DNA of 64,000 bases from positions 64 to 64,063 of the forward strand of contig CAZEJJ010000016.1 in NCBI GenBank assembly GCA_964512185.1, read 5' to 3'. The position numbers were made by a program, and so were the translations under genes. The notes under the pieces are model-generated. The model did not search any database and was not told the DNA's origin. It saw nothing but the letters and a program-made list of their open reading frames with translations. This DNA comes from an uncultured Enterobacterales bacterium. GTDB taxonomy: Bacteria; Myxococcota_A; UBA796; JAFGLY01. Below, piece after piece: positions 41,042 through 60,241 of the stretch (position 1 is the first letter of the stretch; every line of letters starts with the position of its first letter).

Positions 41042-42001
41042 TCAAGCCTCGGCAGTGGTTTCCGGCGCCGCTCCACCCCCATCGGGGAGGATGCGCACCT
41101 GCTTGTGGGAGCCATCTCCCACCGACTCGGTGACCACGCCTTCGTAGTCGGCCACCACCATGTGCACGATGCGCCGGGCGTAGCTGTTGAGCTCCTTGCG
41201 GATCAGCTCAGCCTCGCCGGTCTTCTTGACACGTCGGGCCACCCGGTGGGCCAGGCGCTCGATGTCCTGCTGGCGGGTGCGGTCGCGCTTCTCGTCCCTT
41301 CCGCGATCGTCGTCACGGCCACGATCCCGGTCACGCCCACGGTCGCGGTCGCGGTCGCGGTCGCGGTCGCGGCTGCGATGGTCTCCTCGGTCGCGGTCGC
41401 GTCCCCGACCACGGTCGCGGTCTCGATCGCGGCCACGGCCACGATCCCGGTCACGGTCTCGATCGCGGCCACGGCCACGATCCCGGTCACGCCCACGGTC
41501 GCGGTCGCGGTCGCGGTCGCGGTCATCGCGCCGATTGTCCGCCACGTCGATCTTGTAGCTGAAATCGGGGTTGGCCTTGCCCACCACCTCTTGCAGCAGG
41601 GTGTGAACGGCTTCCAGCGTGACACCCCGTCGGCCCACCAGGTGCCCACCACGCTCGGTGATCACCTTGAGCGTGATGGTGCCATCGAGGATCCGGGCCT
41701 GGACCTGGGCCTCGAAGTCCATCTTCTTCAGCAGCTCGGCCAGCCAGGCCCGCGCTGCCTCGGTGGCCTCGATGACGGCCGGATCGCTGGGCCACACGAA
41801 GACCTTGACAGTGTCCATGCCCTGGACGGCGCCGGTCTTGGCGCTCCGGAAATGGGAGATGTCGAGCTTGTGCTCCACCATGGAGGGCTCCAGGTCCAGG
41901 GCCTTGGCGCCCGCATGGATGGCCTCTACCAGGGAGTCACCCTCGCCGGTGACCGCATCGGGGTGGGGCAGTGCTGGGGTGTTGGTCGCTTCTTCCGTCA
42001 T
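41042..42001 (-). CDS. jag: Jag/EloR (KhpB) RNA-binding protein with KH and R3H domains and an Arg-Asp repeat insert
   Basis: GHLVGRRGVTLEAV (KH), LNSYARRIVH (R3H); position between yidC and mnmE. Confidence 0.85.
   Translation of the reverse strand: MTEEATNTPALPHPDAVTGEGDSLVEAIHAGAKALDLEPSMVEHKLDISHFRSAKTGAVQGMDTVKVFVWPSDPAVIEATEAARAWLAELLKKMDFEAQVQARILDGTITLKVITERGGHLVGRRGVTLEAVHTLLQEVVGKANPDFSYKIDVADNRRDDRDRDRDRDRGRDRDRGRGRDRDRDRDRGRGRDRDRDRGRGRDRDRGDHRSRDRDRDRDRDRGRDRDRGRDDDRGRDEKRDRTRQQDIERLAHRVARRVKKTGEAELIRKELNSYARRIVHMVVADYEGVVTESVGDGSHKQVRILPDGGGAAPETTAEA
41275..41540 (-). repeat. (RD)n/RG low-complexity coding repeat within jag
   Basis: Runs of cggtcg and duplicated blocks encoding DRDRDRDRGRDRDRGRG... 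Confidence 0.9.
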
Positions 42002-43794
42002 CGCTTTCTCCTCGCCTTCTTCTTCTTGGATTCCTTGGTACGCTCGACAACCGGAGCCTTCTCCGCCTCTTTGGAGGGCTTCTTCACGATGGGGTCGCCG
42101 TACTTCTTGCGGATGTAGAGCTGCTGCAGGATGGTCAGCACGCTGTTGATGGTGATGTAGAGGCACAGGCCTGAGGGCAGGCTGAACATGATGAAGATGA
42201 AGATGAGCGGCATGAGCCGGAACATCTTCTGCTGCATGGGATCCACGCCGGCCATGGGGGTCATCCACTGCTGACCCAGCATGAGCACGCCCACGAGGAT
42301 GGGCAGCACGGCGAAGGGATCCTGGGCGGAGAGGTCTTGCCAGAGCAGGAACTCGCTGCGGTACAGATCGACGCTGTAGAGCAAGGTGGAGTAGAGCGCG
42401 AACCAGATGGGCATCTGGATGACCATGGGCAGGCAGCCGCTCATGGGGTTGACGCCGTGCTCCTTGAACAGGCGCATCTGCTCCTGGGCCTGCATCTCGC
42501 GATCGTCCTTGTACTTCTCCTTGAGCTCGGTCATGAGCGGCTGGATCTTCTTCATCTCCTGCTGGGAGCGGAAGGACTTCTGCGTGAGCGGGAAGAACAC
42601 GCCCTTGACCAGCAGGGTGAGCACGATGATGGCCAGACCCCAGTTGCCCACGAAGCCGTGCACGCTCACCAGCAGCCAGTAGAGGATCTTGGCGAAGAAG
42701 CCGAAGAAACCGAACTGCACCGATTTTTCGAGATCGTGGCCCAGCTCCTTGAGCTGCGCGTGCCCCTTGGGCCCGGCGTAGAGCATGAACTCCAGCTCGC
42801 GGGATCCCCCGGGCGCCAGGGTCTCGCGGTCGGAGACCAGGAAGACCCCGCCGGCGTCTTCACCCAGGGCGCTCGCGGTGAGCTGACCCCACCCCTGCTC
42901 CAAGGGAACGAGGGCGGTGAGGAAATAGCGGCTGGCGATGCCCAGCCAGGAGACCTGGCCCGGGCGCAGCACGGGACCCTTCTTCAGATCGTCGAGATCG
43001 TCCTCCACCTCGAGATCGCCCACCACCACCGAGGCGGGACGGGCGAAGTTGGAGAAGCGCGTGTACTTGCCCTCGAAGGTGTCGCCCACCCCGACCCACA
43101 GGCGCCCGGACATGGGCTGCTCGGTGGTGTTGGAGAAGCGCACGCTGAAGCGGCCCTGGTAGGGCTCCGGGCCAGCGCGGTAGTGCTTGGTGATCTTGAG
43201 GCCGCTGGGAGCGACGCGCTCGAAGAGGGCCTCGGTGTCGCTGACGGAGACCTGCACGTAGTCGCCGTCCTGGAAGCCGGAGTCCATACCGCCGGCGAGG
43301 CCCAGCGTTGCATCGCTGGTGAGCAATCGCTCCGGCAGGACGCCACCGTTATAGGGCTTCCAGCCGCCCTCAGCCTCGCCCTTGACCTTGGCAAAGAGCC
43401 AGCTGTGCAGGGCATTCACGTCGTAGGGGCCGGGGTGCTGGGGGAGCTGCAGCTGACGGAGCACACCGCCACGGCTGCTCCACTCCGCTGTCCAGTCCGA
43501 GGAGACCAGCGGGTAGGTCTCCTCGGGCAGGCTGCCGGTGGCCACGGCTGCCGGGGCCGCCGGAGGGAGCTCGGGGCTGGCAGCGATCTGGCTCGTGGCG
43601 AGCTCGGTGGGGCCGGTGGACGGGAGGGGCGCTTCGGAGCCGGCCGCCACTTGTTCGCTGGCGCCATCCTGGGGAAGCACCATCTGGTCGGATCCACCCT
43701 GCGGAGCGATCCAGGCGGACCAGAGCCAGAAGACCGCGAGGCTCAGCACGATGGCCAGAATGGCTCTCTTCTCTGTGCCGTCGTTCTCGTTCAC
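41998..43794 (-). CDS. yidC: Membrane protein insertase YidC
   Basis: GNWGLAIIVLTLLVK, QPLMTELKEKY, GVNPMSGCLP, QMPIWFALY, LPSGLCLY. Confidence 0.95.
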   Translation of the reverse strand: MNENDGTEKRAILAIVLSLAVFWLWSAWIAPQGGSDQMVLPQDGASEQVAAGSEAPLPSTGPTELATSQIAASPELPPAAPAAVATGSLPEETYPLVSSDWTAEWSSRGGVLRQLQLPQHPGPYDVNALHSWLFAKVKGEAEGGWKPYNGGVLPERLLTSDATLGLAGGMDSGFQDGDYVQVSVSDTEALFERVAPSGLKITKHYRAGPEPYQGRFSVRFSNTTEQPMSGRLWVGVGDTFEGKYTRFSNFARPASVVVGDLEVEDDLDDLKKGPVLRPGQVSWLGIASRYFLTALVPLEQGWGQLTASALGEDAGGVFLVSDRETLAPGGSRELEFMLYAGPKGHAQLKELGHDLEKSVQFGFFGFFAKILYWLLVSVHGFVGNWGLAIIVLTLLVKGVFFPLTQKSFRSQQEMKKIQPLMTELKEKYKDDREMQAQEQMRLFKEHGVNPMSGCLPMVIQMPIWFALYSTLLYSVDLYRSEFLLWQDLSAQDPFAVLPILVGVLMLGQQWMTPMAGVDPMQQKMFRLMPLIFIFIMFSLPSGLCLYITINSVLTILQQLYIRKKYGDPIVKKPSKEAEKAPVVERTKESKKKKARRKR

Positions 43795-44909: not shown

Positions 44910-46301
44910 ATGCAGGATCTCTGGAACCGCGTCCGCGACATCCTCGCCGAGCACATCAGTCCTAGCAATCTCGACGTGTGGCTGAGCGAGGTTCGCATCC
45001 TCAAGGTCCGGGACAGCGAGGTCCTGCTGGAGGTACCCAATCGCTTCCACCGCGACTGGATCATGGACAACTACCAGGACGCGATGAAGAAGGCCTTCAG
45101 CACGGTGCTGGGCGGCAATGTGGGCATCCGTATCAGCCTGCAGGCCGAGGAGAAGCCTGCTCCCATCGCGCCCGCCATCGAGCGCCCGGCGGACAGGCAT
45201 CTCTCCCCCGACCGTGAGCCCGCGAGCGAGACAGCTCCCCTCGGGCCCGCCGGCTCCGACAACGGCCCGCTGGGCTGGCGAGGGCGGCCACACCCAGAGA
45301 AGACCTTCGACAATTTCGTGGTCGGCGCCTGCAACGAATTCGCCCACGGTGCCGCCCAGGCCGTAGCCGACTTCCCAGGGGGACAGTACAACCCCTTGTT
45401 CATGTACGGAGGCACCGGCCTGGGCAAGACCCACCTGCTGCACTCCATCGGCAACCGGATCCTCCACCAGGAGCCCTCTGCGCGCATCTGCTACGTCACC
45501 GCCGAGCAGTTCATGAACGAGATGATCACGGCCATCCGCTACAAGCGCACCCAGGAATTCCGCGAGCGCTACCGCAGCCGCTCCGATGCCCTGCTCATCG
45601 ATGACATCCAGTTTCTTGGCGGCAAGCGAGGCACCCAGGAAGAGTTCTTCCACACCTTCGAGGCCTTGCAGAACGCCGGCCGCCAGATCGTCATGACGGC
45701 CGATATGCTGCCTCGAGACATCGAAGGCCTCGAAGAGCGCCTGCGCACCCGTTTCTCGGGCGGTCTCGAGGTGGACCTGCAGCCCCCCGACCTGGAGACC
45801 ATGCTGGCCATTCTGCACAAGAAGGCCGAAGAGCTGGGCCTGCTGGTGCCCGGCGACGCGGCCCTGTTCATCGCGGGCGGGGTCAGGGGCAACATCCGCG
45901 AGCTCGAAGGCGCGCTCAAGCGGCTGGCGGCCATCACCGCCATGTACGGCGAGCCGATCACCCTCGAGACGACCCGCAAGCGGCTGGCGCACCTGATCGT
46001 ACCCGAAAACCCCATCATCACGCCCGACCAGATCATCAAGACCGTCGCTCGAATGCACAACGTCAAGACAGCCGACGTCCTGGGCCCGTCCCACCAGAAG
46101 CGCCTGGTCCGGCCCCGCCACATCGCCATCTTCCTGATCCGCGAGCGCACCAACCTGTCCTTCCCCGACATCGGACGCGCCGTGGGTGGTCGCGACTCCT
46201 CCACCGTCCAGTACGCCTACCGGCGCATCAAGAAGCTGCGGGAGAAAGATCCGGACATGCAGGCCATCATCGAGCTGCTCGAAAAAAACCTGCATGCCTG
46301 A
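44910..46301 (+). CDS. dnaA: Chromosomal replication initiator DnaA
   Basis: FDNFVVG, YNPLFMYGGTGLGKTHLL, LLIDDIQF, RLRTRFSGGL, NIRELEGAL, domain IV GGRDSSTV. Confidence 0.97.
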   Translation: MQDLWNRVRDILAEHISPSNLDVWLSEVRILKVRDSEVLLEVPNRFHRDWIMDNYQDAMKKAFSTVLGGNVGIRISLQAEEKPAPIAPAIERPADRHLSPDREPASETAPLGPAGSDNGPLGWRGRPHPEKTFDNFVVGACNEFAHGAAQAVADFPGGQYNPLFMYGGTGLGKTHLLHSIGNRILHQEPSARICYVTAEQFMNEMITAIRYKRTQEFRERYRSRSDALLIDDIQFLGGKRGTQEEFFHTFEALQNAGRQIVMTADMLPRDIEGLEERLRTRFSGGLEVDLQPPDLETMLAILHKKAEELGLLVPGDAALFIAGGVRGNIRELEGALKRLAAITAMYGEPITLETTRKRLAHLIVPENPIITPDQIIKTVARMHNVKTADVLGPSHQKRLVRPRHIAIFLIRERTNLSFPDIGRAVGGRDSSTVQYAYRRIKKLREKDPDMQAIIELLEKNLHA

Positions 46302-46662
46302 TCCTGCCCTTCACGGTCCGAGCTGTGGAATTCCCGATGGAATTCCCTGTGGAATGACCGGTGAATTCCCTGTGGACCGACCTGTGGAACACCCAGCCCC
46401 ACCGGCTCCAACCTCAAACCTCCCATGGATCCAGGTCTGTATCGGGAGCCGCTTCCACTGGTTTCCCAGATCAGAGAATACCTTTCAAGCCTGATATCGG
46501 GATTTTCCACTTTTCCATCAGGCATACTGTGTTCTACTAGCAATTGAACAACAGGATCTTCTTCTTATTGAAGTGACGAAGGCTGGCTGCCAGTCCGCTG
46601 CTACCAGTGGCCGCAGGGCCCCCTGCGCGGCTATGAAGCAACGAAACACAGGGAGCGAATCC
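46302..46662. promoter_or_regulatory. Putative oriC (dnaA-dnaN intergenic region) with variant DnaA boxes and an AT-rich segment
   Basis: TGTGGAA-like motifs at 46324, 46336, 46348, 46371 and 46383 (degenerate copy at 46360); reverse-strand TTCCAC/TTCCAT at ~46451-46519; AT-rich ~46524-46572. Confidence 0.75.
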
Positions 46663-47781
46663 ATGGACCTGTACATCACGCAAGAGGAACTCGCGCGCGC
46701 CCTCGGCGCAGTGCAGGGTGTGGTGGAGCGACGCAGCAACCACCAGGTCCTGGCTCACGCGCTGCTCACCGCGCGGGATGGCCAGCTGCAGGTGATGGCC
46801 ACCGACACCGAGCTCACCGTCGTGCACCGCTACCCCGCTGAGGTGGCGGATCATGGCAGCGTCTCGGTCAACGCGGCGCACCTGTTCCAGGTGGCCAGGA
46901 ACCTGCCCGATCGCGCCGTGCATCTGGTGGGCGAAGCCAACCACGCGCTGGTGGTGGACGCCCCTCCGGCCCACTTCCGGCTGGTGGGCCTGCCGCCAGA
47001 CGAGTACCCCCCGCTGCCATCCTTCGAGTCCGCCGCCAGCATGGTGGTCAAGGCCGAAGACCTGCGGCGGATCATCGACCGCACCGTCTTCGCCATCCCA
47101 ACCGACGACCAACGCTATGGCCTCAACGGTGGGCACCTCGAGAGCGTGGAGGACCTCGAGGGCACGCCCGTCGCACGGCTGGTGACCACCGACGGAAGCC
47201 GCCTGTGCTACTCCGGCGCTCCGTTCCAGGGTGAGTTCGGCATGGGTCATCACATGCTGGTACCTCGCAAGGCCCTGCTCGAGGTCCGCCGCATGTTGGA
47301 GCAACCCGAAGCCGAGGTGGCGATCGCCTTCGGCGATCGGGCGGCCACCTTCACCGTGGGCAGCTCCATGCTGCATACCCGCCTGGTGGACGGTGAATTC
47401 CCCGCCTACCGCTCCGTTCTTCCGCAGAACTACCTGCGGCGTGCCGTGGTCAACCGGGGCGCCTTCCGCGACGCTCTGCGGCGCGTGGCCCTCGAGGCCA
47501 TCGACCAGGCCAGCACCATCCGCATGAGCTTCGGGTCCGATGAGGTCCTTGTCACCTCCCGCGGCATCGACCACGGTGAGGCAAAGCACCCGGTAGCCGT
47601 GGCCTTCGAAGGGGAGCCCATCGAGATGGGCTTCAACGTCCGCTACTTCCTCGAGGTGGTCAACTGCCTCGAAGACGACGAGCTGGTGCTGGAGATGGGC
47701 GAGCCCTTGTCGCCTTGCATGGTGCGCTCGCCTTCCGACGAAGCCTCCCTCTTCATCATCATGCCCATCCGGCTCGACTAG
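46663..47781 (+). CDS. dnaN: DNA polymerase III beta sliding clamp
   Basis: MATDTEL, RYGLNG, VTTDGSRL, RLVDGEFPAY, GFNVRYF, IIMPIRL. Confidence 0.95.
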   Translation: MDLYITQEELARALGAVQGVVERRSNHQVLAHALLTARDGQLQVMATDTELTVVHRYPAEVADHGSVSVNAAHLFQVARNLPDRAVHLVGEANHALVVDAPPAHFRLVGLPPDEYPPLPSFESAASMVVKAEDLRRIIDRTVFAIPTDDQRYGLNGGHLESVEDLEGTPVARLVTTDGSRLCYSGAPFQGEFGMGHHMLVPRKALLEVRRMLEQPEAEVAIAFGDRAATFTVGSSMLHTRLVDGEFPAYRSVLPQNYLRRAVVNRGAFRDALRRVALEAIDQASTIRMSFGSDEVLVTSRGIDHGEAKHPVAVAFEGEPIEMGFNVRYFLEVVNCLEDDELVLEMGEPLSPCMVRSPSDEASLFIIMPIRLD

Positions 47782-48037: not shown

Positions 48038-51683
<3,646 letters not shown>

Positions 51684-56883: not shown

Positions 56884-58956
56884 CTAGGGTTCTTTGGGTT
56901 CCATCACCTGCTGACCCAGCACCACGGTGCGGGTCTCGCCGGGATCGAGCTGCACCGACAGCTCGATGGACTTCAACTGCTCGTGCTCTACCCGCAGCTG
57001 GTGCTCGCTGCCCGGTTCGAGCTCCAGCTCGTAAGCGGGGCCACCCTGCTGCTCGCGCCCATCCAGGAGCAGGCGTGCCCCTGCGGGGACCGACAGCTGC
57101 AGGGTGCCGGGACCCGAAGGCGCCGGAGCCGCCAGCTCGGGGTCGCTGAGCGCGGAGGAGACCACGAAGCCCACCAGGCAGCCCAGAAGCAGGCCCAGGA
57201 TCAGGGTGAACAGGGCGCCGGCCAGGTAGGCCAGGTGGCTGCGCAGGGGGATGCGCCCGGGCTGGGTCGGCGCGACCGGGGTCTGCACCGGGGCTGCGGG
57301 GACGGGGGCCCTTGTTGAGCGCCGCGGAGGGGGCGCGCTGATGGGTGGAGCCGGGCCCGGGCGCTCCGCAGGGGGTGGGTAGCTGCGCTGGGTGGGTGGG
57401 GCTGGTGGCTGGTGGTAGCGCTCGGCGGCGGGTGGCGGCCTGGGCGCGACCCGGGGAGCTTCTTCGGAGGCAAGGTCCAGATCGTCTATGACGGGCTCAC
57501 CCGCCACGGTGGGGCGTTCCAGATCGGCCCGCGCCAGGGTGGGGCGGTCCAGGAAGGCGGAATCCTGTTCCTCGGCCGTGATCCCGAAGGCGGGGGCCGC
57601 GGCGGGATCTTCCACGGGTTCGGCGGGGAAGCTGTATGCGGGCTTGCGCTTGATCTGTGTGTCCAGCTCCCCCATGTCTCCGCCGTCGAGCAGCGGGTTG
57701 GCGCGGATCAGCGTCGCGGCCTCGGACAGCCCCACCTGGCCGCCGAAGCTGCCGACGGCGTTGGGGTCCGGGATGCGCCGGAGCATGGTGGCGGCTTCGT
57801 GGATGGAGGCCGCGGGGGAGGGCGCCGCCGTGGGGCGTGGAGCCTTCGGCTTGAAGGGCGACACCCGGCTCAGGGGGTTCTCCTTCACCACCGTCGGCAG
57901 GATGTCCTCGTCGAAGTCGTCTATGGGAGGCGGCGCGTTGGCGGCGAGCCCGCCCGTGGGGCGATCCAGCGGACGGGTGGGAGCGTCGGTTCGCTGCGCC
58001 TTGTTCCGCCGGGCCTTCTGTTCGGGGAACAAGCCCTTGAGGAAGGCCGCCAGGGTGGACTGGGTGAAGATGAACTCGGACTCGTGGAAGAAGCGGTCCA
58101 GCTCTTCCTTGAACGCCGTGGGCGTGGGGTAGCGTTCCTTGGGATCCAGGGTGAGGGCCCGCGAGATGACATCGTCCAGCTGGGGTGGGATGTCCATGTT
58201 CACGAAGGAAGCGGGCTCGAAGCTGCTGCTTCGGACCGCTTCGAGCGTGGCCATGTCGGTGTCCTTGCGGAAGGGGTGGTCCCCCACCAGCATCTCGTAG
58301 AAGACGATGCCCAGGCTGAACAGATCGCTCTGTTGGGAGGCGGTGCGGCCGTCAGCCTGCTCGGGGGTGAGGTAGTCGAAGCGGCCCTTGACCACCCCGT
58401 CAACGGTCTCCAGGGCCTTGATGCTGGCCTTGGACATCCCGAAGTCGGTGATCTTCACCTCACCCTGCTTGCTGATCAGGATGTTGGACGGTGAGATGTC
58501 GCGGTGCACGATGTCGAGGGGCACCGGGCGTCCGTCGCGCATCACCTGGCGGTTGTGGGCGTACTCGAGGCCCTTGAGCACCTCGATGCAGATGAAGACC
58601 GCGTGAGGCACCGGCAGGGTGATGCCCTTTTCCAGGCAGCGCTTCATCACCTTGCCCAGGTCGTGCCCGGACACGAATTCCATGGCGATGAAGTAGTGGT
58701 CGTCGATGTTCCCCAGGTCGAGGATCTGCACGATGTTGGCGTGGGACAGCAGGCCCGCCACCTTGGCTTCGTCCACCAGCAGATCGACGAATTCGGGGTT
58801 GCGGGACAGGCCGGGCAGGATCCGCTTGATGGCGAAGGTGCGGTGGAAGCCACCGATGCCATCCAGACGCGCCTTGAAGATCTCCGCCATGCCCCCGGAA
58901 GCGATGCGCTCCAGGATACGGTACTTGCCGAAAGAGGCGGGTGCCGGCTGGGTCAT
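56884..58956 (-). CDS. Membrane Ser/Thr protein kinase with a Pro-rich linker and PEGA-like C-terminus
   Basis: GGMAEIFKA, AIKRIL, HRDISPSN, DFG, YLTPEQ; one TM segment near the C-terminus. Confidence 0.93.
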   Translation of the reverse strand: MTQPAPASFGKYRILERIASGGMAEIFKARLDGIGGFHRTFAIKRILPGLSRNPEFVDLLVDEAKVAGLLSHANIVQILDLGNIDDHYFIAMEFVSGHDLGKVMKRCLEKGITLPVPHAVFICIEVLKGLEYAHNRQVMRDGRPVPLDIVHRDISPSNILISKQGEVKITDFGMSKASIKALETVDGVVKGRFDYLTPEQADGRTASQQSDLFSLGIVFYEMLVGDHPFRKDTDMATLEAVRSSSFEPASFVNMDIPPQLDDVISRALTLDPKERYPTPTAFKEELDRFFHESEFIFTQSTLAAFLKGLFPEQKARRNKAQRTDAPTRPLDRPTGGLAANAPPPIDDFDEDILPTVVKENPLSRVSPFKPKAPRPTAAPSPAASIHEAATMLRRIPDPNAVGSFGGQVGLSEAATLIRANPLLDGGDMGELDTQIKRKPAYSFPAEPVEDPAAAPAFGITAEEQDSAFLDRPTLARADLERPTVAGEPVIDDLDLASEEAPRVAPRPPPAAERYHQPPAPPTQRSYPPPAERPGPAPPISAPPPRRSTRAPVPAAPVQTPVAPTQPGRIPLRSHLAYLAGALFTLILGLLLGCLVGFVVSSALSDPELAAPAPSGPGTLQLSVPAGARLLLDGREQQGGPAYELELEPGSEHQLRVEHEQLKSIELSVQLDPGETRTVVLGQQVMEPKEP

Positions 58957-59138: not shown

Positions 59139-59182
59139 TGTGGAAAAAACTATGGAAGAGTGATGGAATCGGCTGTGGAAAG
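59139..59182. promoter_or_regulatory. Second array of oriC-like TGTGGAA boxes upstream of the flp pilins
   Basis: TGTGGAAAA 59139, TATGGAAGA 59151, GATGGAATC 59162, TGTGGAAAG 59174. Confidence 0.5.
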
Positions 59183-59317
59183 TGCCCCCGACCGGCCGAG
59201 AGTGCTATCCCCTGTGGGCTGGGTGGCGAGCGCGTCGGGCCGTGGCGGTGAAAGCGCTGCAGGTTGGCCCGGGTCTTGCTACTCTCAGGTACAGACCCCC
59301 TCCTGGAGGCGTGGCTC

Positions 59318-59515
59318 ATGTTCCCGGCCCGCAGTCGTAAAGGTCAGAGCACCACCGAGTACATGCTCCTGATCGCCGTGATCATCATCGCCATCGTCGC
59401 GGCCGCCTATGTGTTCATCGATCCCTTCCAGGAAGGCGTGCACAACCTGGCACTCGACATCTCTGAGATCCTCGACACCGGCGAGGTCGTTGGCACCGGC
59501 TCAGCCAGGAATTGA
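59318..59515 (+). CDS. Flp family type IVb pilin 1
   Basis: RKGQSTTEYMLLIAVIIIAIV; GGAGG upstream. Confidence 0.85.
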   Translation: MFPARSRKGQSTTEYMLLIAVIIIAIVAAAYVFIDPFQEGVHNLALDISEILDTGEVVGTGSARN

Positions 59516-59517
59516 CC

Positions 59518-59688
59518 ATGCGTCCACTGCTGTCCCGTCGTCGTCGCCAAGGCCAGACCATGGTGGAGTACGTCCTGGTGGTCGCCGTCATCGGAGTGGC
59601 GCTGGCGGTGGGATTCATCGCCTTCGGCGAGACGGCGCGCGGAGTCTTCGACAACGTCCGGCGCACTGTCCAGATGCCCTACCCGTAG
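59518..59688 (+). CDS. Flp family type IVb pilin 2 (56 aa, below the ORF-track cutoff)
   Basis: MRPLLSRRRRQGQTMVEYVLVVAVIGVALAVGFIAFGETARGVFDNVRRTVQMPYP. Confidence 0.85.
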   Translation: MRPLLSRRRRQGQTMVEYVLVVAVIGVALAVGFIAFGETARGVFDNVRRTVQMPYP

Positions 59689-59698
59689 CGGGAGGGGC

Positions 59699-60241
59699 AT
59701 GTCCTTCCTCTCCACCCTCACCCCCGCCGATGCCATGGTGGCGGGCTTGCTGTGCGTGGCGGTGTACACCGACCTGCGCAGCCGCAAGGTGCCCAATGTG
59801 CTCACCTTCGGCACCATGGCGGCGGCGCTGGTGGTGCACCCGGTGGTGGCCTGCTCGCGGGCTGGCCTCGAGGGTCTCTTCCCTGCTGTACTGGTGGTGC
59901 TGGCGGGCATCGGCGTCGCCTTCGTGCCTGGCTTCATCATGTGGAACCTGGGTGGCGCCATGAAGGCTGGCGACGCCAAGCTGCTCATGGCCATGGGCGC
60001 CATCCTGGGCCCCTTCGACGTCCTGCGCGTCTTCCTCACCACACTGCTGGTGGAGATCCCCATCGGCATCGTGCAGCTGGTGCGCGCGGGCAAGCTGCGC
60101 TCCTTCTTCTCCGTGATCAAGGCGGGGGTCACCCGTCGCGATGATGGACCGAAGCCCCTGGTGGCCCCCTTCGCCGGGGTGATCGCCATCGGCTACCTGG
60201 TCTCCCGGATCTTCCCCCAGCTCTTCGGGTTCTGGTCATGA
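59699..60241 (+). CDS. cpaA: Prepilin peptidase CpaA/TadV (A24 family)
   Basis: YTDLRSRKVPN, GAMKAGDAKLLMAMG, PFAGVI. Confidence 0.88.
   Translation: MSFLSTLTPADAMVAGLLCVAVYTDLRSRKVPNVLTFGTMAAALVVHPVVACSRAGLEGLFPAVLVVLAGIGVAFVPGFIMWNLGGAMKAGDAKLLMAMGAILGPFDVLRVFLTTLLVEIPIGIVQLVRAGKLRSFFSVIKAGVTRRDDGPKPLVAPFAGVIAIGYLVSRIFPQLFGFWS

Follow-up and report, generated by a model that had tools for sequence, protein, structure and literature searches.

Does the replacement of base-reading residues in the replication initiator DnaA change the DNA box that the protein recognizes? This question is raised by the dnaA gene (44910..46301, plus strand) in a 64,000-nucleotide stretch of DNA from an uncultured high-GC bacterium (the window) and by the array of putative DnaA boxes that follows it. 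Six residues, conserved from Escherichia coli to the Firmicutes, are commonly taken to fix the recognition of the DnaA box. The original prediction for this locus held that a histidine-to-serine change in the recognition motif had co-evolved with boxes having a TTCCACA core, giving rise to a lineage-specific initiator code. Based on the analysis described here we consider it probable that the locus is an ordinary dnaA–dnaN type origin of replication (oriC) equipped with a new variant of DnaA domain IV and a relaxed (N)NTTCCAC(A/C)G box, and that a further substitution, of Arg399 (E. coli numbering) by histidine, is the main cause of the changes at box positions 1–3.

The dnaA product (463 amino acids comprising DnaA_N, AAA+ and a domain IV helix-turn-helix) matches TIGR00362 with 486.7 bits (cut-off 343.9) over residues 5–461, and PF11638, PF00308 and PF08299 all score above threshold (58.9, 218.9 and 75.4 bits, respectively). 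Walker A (GGTGLGKTH), Walker B (LLIDDIQF) and sensor (GNIRELEGAL) motifs can be read in the translation. Domain IV aligns without gaps over 83 residues (E = 1e-17) to E. coli domain IV in complex with TTATCCACA (PDB 1J1V); fold and length match, and P423, D433 and T435 (the last as serine) are conserved. The motif GGRDSSTVQYA reported in the original prediction is indeed encoded at residues 426–436 (46185..46217, plus strand), where the recognition helix starts. Its Ser430 (codon TCC, 46197–46199, plus strand) aligns with His434 of E. coli and its Tyr435 with His439. The Asp-His dyad D433-H434, described as 'highly conservative' in a survey (PMC5043019), reads Asp-Ser in the window DnaA. The alignment to 1J1V, together with a comparison of the same column in 120 homologues, revealed a second substitution that the original prediction did not include: the minor-groove residue Arg399 is replaced by His395 (codon CAC, 46092..46094, plus strand), with the equivalents of K401 and R402 kept in the loop.

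Base-specific contacts in E. coli are made by R399, P423, D433, H434, T435 and H439 (PMC7561715, PMC2533591, PMC5043019). In the major groove 5'-TnCACA-3' is read by helix 434–451, in the minor groove 5'-TTA-3' by Arg399, and an R399A mutant of E. coli DnaA is defective in box binding (PMC5742627). Judged by the alignment, the window DnaA has replacements at two of these six residues, histidine for Arg399 and serine for His434, with which the recognition helix of the major groove begins, and both substitutions are found on a Tyr439 background common to relatives. No DnaA with the combination His399/Ser434 is described in the literature searched.

The change from histidine to serine is real and fixed throughout a clade. 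Among the 120 best homologues of the window DnaA, the motif RDS[SA]T[VI]QYA is present in 18 protein clusters, which are exactly those at least 64% identical to the query (Ser clade). The next relatives (54–59% identity) carry RDH[SA]TIQYA, and a separate clade among the homologues carries RDNSTVQYA (Asn clade). Position 399 is occupied by histidine in 18/18 proteins of the Ser clade, by arginine in 5/5 proteins of the sister clade, all of which also have His434, and by lysine in 17/17 Asn-clade proteins; the remaining 80 homologues have arginine (55), lysine (21) or asparagine (4). When proteins and loci were pooled, the latter being those of close relatives found by means of degenerate DNA patterns that encode the motif, the triple His399/Ser434/Tyr439 was found in 31 of 235 DnaAs, among which there is no intermediate with H399+H434 or R399+S434 and His399 and Ser434 always come together. 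Three matches in Nitratireductor (L081, L090, L091) encode no DnaA and were discarded as chance hits. In a neighbour-joining tree the Ser clade is monophyletic with an Arg399/His434/Tyr439 group as its sister, and the Asn clade has a separate origin adjoining a Lys399/His434/Tyr439 group. Thus, there were two losses of His434, each with Tyr439 in the background. The Ser434 codon within the Ser clade is TCC, TCG or TCA, and AGC in L085 and L142; retention of serine across this switch between the two codon families argues against a sequencing error and for selection. Elsewhere His434 is nearly invariant: in a background sample of 80 diverse genomes, whose DnaAs are ~40% identical, it is present in 78/78 DnaAs with a readable motif among the matches listed.

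What, then, do the boxes of such a protein look like? Six direct candidate DnaA boxes of the NNTTCCACA type are located on the minus strand at 46322..46395, beginning 21 bp after the dnaA stop codon. The plus strand holds all six units quoted in the original prediction, in the order gcTGTGGAATTc, ccGATGGAATTc, ccTGTGGAATGa, ccGGTGAATTc, ccTGTGGACCGa and ccTGTGGAACAc. The corresponding minus-strand 9-mers are AATTCCACA (46324–32), AATTCCATC (46336–44), CATTCCACA (46348–56), GAATTCACC (46360–68), CGGTCCACA (46371–79) and TGTTCCACA (46383–91). They share one orientation and are spaced by 12, 12, 12, 11 and 12 bp, in agreement with the proposed period of about 12 bp. As had likewise been stated, no perfect TTATCCACA is present, and this holds for the whole 64 kb; four copies with one mismatch exist, none of them within the dnaA–dnaN intergenic region, and the best boxes of the window deviate from TTATCCACA by two to three mismatches. 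Calling the units non-canonical is nevertheless justified for positions 1–3 only, since four of the six carry the canonical TCCACA. The word TTCCACA occurs 11 times in the window (2.9 expected; 0/100 shuffles reach 11), including three copies inside the 66-bp array. At least three such boxes per 100 bp are found at two places in the 64 kb, the array at 46322–46395 and a second one at 59139–59185 that is dealt with below.

To place these boxes in context, dnaA–dnaN spacers of 13 Ser-clade genomes (the window, L082–L089, L140, L142, L144 and L145) were set against those of three His434 sister genomes (L092, L093, L094), two genomes with the motif RDH..QYG, three other His434 genomes and 21 genomes of the Asn clade. 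A phased direct array directly follows the dnaA stop codon in every group, with homologous arrays at the matching position in 12 related genomes, and array position and phasing are common to clades down to about 40% DnaA identity. Distances of 11–12 bp account for 55% of the spacings between successive GTGGA-like cores in 13 related origins, compared with 5% in shuffles. In each of the groups the word with the strongest enrichment includes the canonical core: TTCCAC (31 observed, 2.0 expected; present in 9/9 origins) and TTCCACA (16 versus 0.42) are enriched in the Ser clade, TCCACA (13 versus 1.07) in the His434 sister group, ATCCACA (9 versus 0.12) in the RDH..QYG genomes, and TTGTCCA (31 versus 0.87) and TCCACA (45 versus 4.17) in the Asn clade. 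Hence, the oriC motifs derived for DnaAs of the RDS type are enriched in TTCCAC and in T at position 3, but their core is shared with the clades having histidine or asparagine at position 434. Since core and phased array occur in the His, Ser and Asn clades alike, both are ancestral and independent of residue 434.

The clades do differ at the edges of the box, at positions 1, 2, 3 and 9. Sites were anchored on TCCAC, averaged per genome, and compared between the Ser clade and all others in Mann-Whitney tests, whose p-values treat genomes as independent although the whole contrast amounts to one evolutionary transition. T at position 3 is found in 54% of Ser-clade sites versus 10% in the others (p = 3e-6), and C at position 9 in 41% versus 10% (p = 6e-4). 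Conversely, T at position 1 drops to 23% versus 61% (p = 9e-4) and T at position 2 to 36% versus 67% (p = 9e-3). Phase-aligned 12-nucleotide units, which read cc[T/G]GTGGA[A][g/a]nc in the Ser clade and ccTGTGGACAAc in the Asn clade, agree with the picture obtained from anchored sites. In comparison with E. coli TTATCCACA, boxes of the Ser clade lack the preference for T1 and T2, replace A by T at position 3 and tolerate C at position 9, while the core TCCAC(A) is alike. As far as can be read from these sites, the box variant is a relaxation at positions 1–3 and 9 around an unchanged TCCAC core.

These data bear directly on the model in which a single change, of His434 to serine, was enough to re-code DnaA for boxes with a TTCCACA core. 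Ser434 does not occur outside the clade in whose origins TTCCAC(A/C) is enriched and T is favored at position 3, and in this sense a lineage-specific box variant does travel with the altered DnaA. However, the TCCAC(A) core did not change and is common to the His and Asn clades, which leaves no room for a new code. The Asn clade also retains TTGTCCACA-type boxes despite its loss of His434. Moreover, the positions that are altered, 1–3, are those read in E. coli by Arg399 (PMC5742627), a residue that is itself replaced in every member of the Ser clade and whose replacement by histidine therefore is the more natural cause. Finally, Ser434 is not required for a T at position 3, because the Bdellovibrio bacteriovorus box 5'-NN(A/T)TCCACA-3' is bound by E. 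coli DnaA (PMC5124646). That box resembles the one described here in its undefined positions 1 and 2, the possible T at position 3, the TCCACA core and an origin adjoining dnaA; it was derived from footprinting with no tolerance of C9 reported (PMC5124646), whereas the window box is deduced from sequence. Taken together, we regard re-coding through Ser434 alone as unlikely.

Assignment of the changes at positions 1–3 mainly to the Arg399-to-His substitution appears to be the better explanation, and it gains from a gradation across clades. T1 and T2 are conserved in the order Arg399 > Lys399 > His399, with 68% T1 and 89% T2 in Asn-clade genomes having Arg399, 50% and 63% in those having Lys399, and 24% and 33% in the Ser clade with His399. 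A residue 399 that reads the 5' side of the box would be expected to produce such an order. Substitution of His434 possibly contributes to the relaxation at position 9. High-GC Mycobacterium and Streptomyces provide an instructive comparison (PDB 3PVP/3PVV; PMC4285127 Table 1): like the window protein their DnaAs have tyrosine in place of His439 (RDHTTVMYA) and their box, TTGTCCACA, varies at position 3, but unlike the Ser clade they have kept His434, T1 and T2. Their TTGTCCACA-type box is that of the Asn434 clade.

Alternatively, the substitutions could be neutral or merely affinity-lowering, with the differences at the box edges being the result of drift and specificity residing in TCCAC and in cooperative phased arrays. 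According to PMC5124646, it is in positions 1–3 that the box is relaxed and varies with the species. Among the clades examined, the preference at position 3 (A, G, T or mixed) changes from one clade to the next, whatever residue is present at position 434, many degenerate units are present in the arrays of all clades, and just one evolutionary event connects residues and boxes. On the other hand, drift does not readily account for two of six base-contact residues that changed jointly and have since been retained despite about 36% sequence divergence and switches of codon family, nor for the near-invariance of His434 in the diverse sample. In addition, E. coli DnaA no longer binds its box when it carries R399A (PMC5742627), and the graded conservation of T1 and T2 with residue 399 is not what neutrality would predict. 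We thus see neutrality as a serious but clearly less probable alternative to an effect of His399.

The remaining features of the locus are those of a dnaA–dnaN type oriC. The gene order around it is yidC-(rnpA/rpmH)-dnaA-dnaN-recF-gyrB, and relatives have the identical order. Downstream of the array lie an oppositely oriented box, GCTTCCACT (46451..46459, plus strand), with TCCAC boxes in the same region of relatives, and a pair of co-oriented boxes, TTTTCCACT and TTTTCCATC (46503..46519, plus strand). Most of the 13 Ser-clade origins have kept the element (G)ATTTCCCnnTTTCCACC at the corresponding place in the alignment, although its TCCAC core is degenerate in L142, L144, L083 and L086. The box pair adjoins an AT-rich stretch at 46480..46575 (37–48% GC, compared with about 68% on either side). 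This stretch, which includes CTACTAG at about 46533–46539, is a candidate DNA unwinding element, and relatives have a similar AT-rich segment behind their box pair. The window combines, in an architecture that aligns across 13 genomes, an enriched and conserved box cluster with an adjoining element of AT-rich composition.

Several observations weigh against our interpretation. The association between residues and boxes goes back to a single evolutionary event, so that the correlation found at the box edges is confounded with phylogeny and inseparable from shared descent. The His434 sister group is represented by a small sample of 3 origins with 18 boxes. In the window itself, TCCAC boxes have A at position 9 in four of six cases, T in the other two and C in none; the trend at this position is thus carried by relatives and by degenerate units of the window (TTCCATC, TTCACC). 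No regular run of DnaA-trios was seen in three registers after the box pair in the window or its relatives, where the trio-like sequence amounts to CTACTAG and scattered near-matches. GC skew shows no inflection at dnaA within the 64-kb window, a scale at which it is noisy, and the cumulative skew keeps falling to about 54–56 kb, closer to the second array than to the one at dnaA. The origin call hence relies on gene order, on the enrichment of boxes, on the AT-rich dip and on an architecture conserved in 13 genomes.

Taking into account these data, we propose that the six head-to-tail boxes, phased at 11–12 bp behind the dnaA stop codon, would nucleate a head-to-tail oligomer of ATP-DnaA, making 46322–46395 the putative DnaA oligomerisation region. 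The oppositely oriented boxes, including the conserved pair, would abut the AT-rich stretch where the duplex may open, with dnaN coming next. Cognate boxes would have kept the TCCAC core, lost the T1/T2 preference, favored T3 and tolerated C9, which results in a shorter and more relaxed box. It is tempting to go one step further and to speculate that this DnaA gave up the contacts of Arg399 and His434, reads a short core of 6–7 bp (TTCCAC) and leans on phased arrays and cooperativity, Tyr439 having been permissive for the evolution of the dyad; we offer this extension as a tentative idea that is more doubtful than the interpretation from which it starts.

Several known systems can be compared with the proposed architecture. 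Arrays of boxes in the same orientation drive head-to-tail DnaA oligomerisation (PMC10316083), and the E. coli oriC arrays R1/R5M/tau2/I1/I2 and R4/C1-3/I3 are, like those of the window, direct and helically phased, with good units followed by degenerate ones and a second set in the opposite orientation (PMC10316083). The window differs from them by its period of 11–12 bp and by an array that abuts the dnaA stop codon. The basal unwinding system of Bacillus subtilis (PMC10721633; PDB 8BTG) likewise belongs to a dnaA–dnaN origin in which a conserved pair of co-oriented boxes flanks an AT-rich region; unlike there, no regular counterpart of the trio run (3'-GAT-5', middle A conserved) can be read in the window. 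Thermotoga maritima oriC (PMC4285127, PMC10316083) represents another lineage-specific departure from TTATCCACA with a 12-nucleotide unit, but its core, AAACCTACCACC, is far more diverged, while that of the window is canonical.

The second phased array consists of four boxes, TTTTCCACA, TCTTCCATA, GATTCCATC and CTTTCCACA, on the minus strand of an intergenic region (59139..59185). Its units TGTGGAAaaaac, TATGGAAgagt, GATGGAAtcggc and TGTGGAAagtgc share one orientation and a period of 11–12 bp. It is flanked by a Ser/Thr kinase gene (56884–58956, minus strand) and by open reading frames (ORFs) for Flp-pilin-like proteins. The array independently supports NNTTCCA(C/T)(A/C) as the presumptive box of this organism and may be a DnaA-regulated promoter or a datA/DARS-like site of DnaA titration.

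An array upstream of a pilin operon could also point to a protein other than DnaA, such as a response regulator or a nucleoid protein, that binds phased TGTGGAA units and controls expression of dnaN or dnaA. A transcription factor site might well look like this; the array at dnaA lies between the dnaA stop codon and the promoter region of dnaN, and the units of the window contain GGAATTCC palindromes. Yet, these palindromes are not kept in relatives, and the invariant part of the units is the DnaA-box core GTGGA/TCCAC. The preservation of array position and phasing in distant clades is equally hard to reconcile with such a model. DnaA itself is a known transcription factor, and for this reason the second array calls for no other protein. 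We therefore consider binding by another protein highly improbable and retain DnaA as the candidate ligand of both arrays.

With two of six contact residues replaced, the boxes of the Ser clade have drifted at exactly those positions that one of the two reads. The Ser clade and its neighbours (Asn434, with lysine or arginine at position 399) thereby represent a natural mutant series for asking which residue reads which base. Should the idea that both contacts were given up hold true, these clades would form a natural series for the co-evolution of initiator specificity and origin sequence. There is also a practical aspect. Origin-prediction tools search with a TTATCCACA-like consensus, and those that depend on it will find too few boxes in lineages of this kind. 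What is understood of initiation in general stays as it was: this is a modest and testable natural variant without a new recognition code. For replication specialists its interest is moderate and lies in a naturally occurring double mutant whose cognate sites have apparently shifted.

Members of the Asn434 clade are widespread in freshwater and soil (L096 and L105–L135, which are metagenome-assembled genomes (MAGs) from GTDB; proteins P0038, P0046–P0069 etc.). They have lysine or arginine at position 399, and in the 17 proteins of this clade that are among the homologues one residue of the loop, the equivalent of Gly430, is missing. Their origins contain TTGTCCACA-type boxes, frequent TCCCCA and TCCATA variants, and arrays with a period of 11–12 bp. 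A further group of DnaAs (P0095, P0104, P0109, P0111, L004, L061, L064) is characterized by the motif K-H-H-[ST]-T-V, with histidine at the position of Asp433, and by asparagine at that of Arg399; as judged from the alignment it is another natural departure at base-contact residues. Loci of this group are labelled Acidobacteriota or Pyrinomonadaceae.

In the neighbourhood of the origin, yidC (41998–43794) and rnpA/rpmH, which is located between yidC and dnaA, are encoded on the minus strand. The dnaN gene for the beta clamp (372 amino acids; 46663..47781, plus strand) matches PF00712, PF02767 and PF02768 and is followed by recF (48038–49186) and gyrB (49128–51683). The mechanically predicted dnaN ORF begins at a GTG at 46573 within the AT-rich region; based on homology with relatives and a full N-terminal Pfam match, the true start is predicted to be the ATG at 46663. 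Rfam and tRNA scans gave no matches. Near the second array, the two pilin-like ORFs (59318–59515 and 59518–59688) were recognized by weak scores below cut-off (Class_IIIsignal, 22.6 bits with a cut-off of 23.7; Flp_Fap, 20.2 bits with a cut-off of 32.2). They are followed by a gene for an A24 prepilin peptidase (46 bits) at 59699–60241, and the group seems to open a tad/flp pilus locus. The GC content of the window is ~68–70%, and the uncultured lineage, placed by MAG labels that read Deltaproteobacteria or Myxococcota bacterium, most likely belongs to the Myxococcota. Four related MAG records (L082, L084, L085, L087) are labelled 'uncultured Enterobacterales', a label that looks wrong given ~60–70% GC and Myxococcota-like DnaA relatives.

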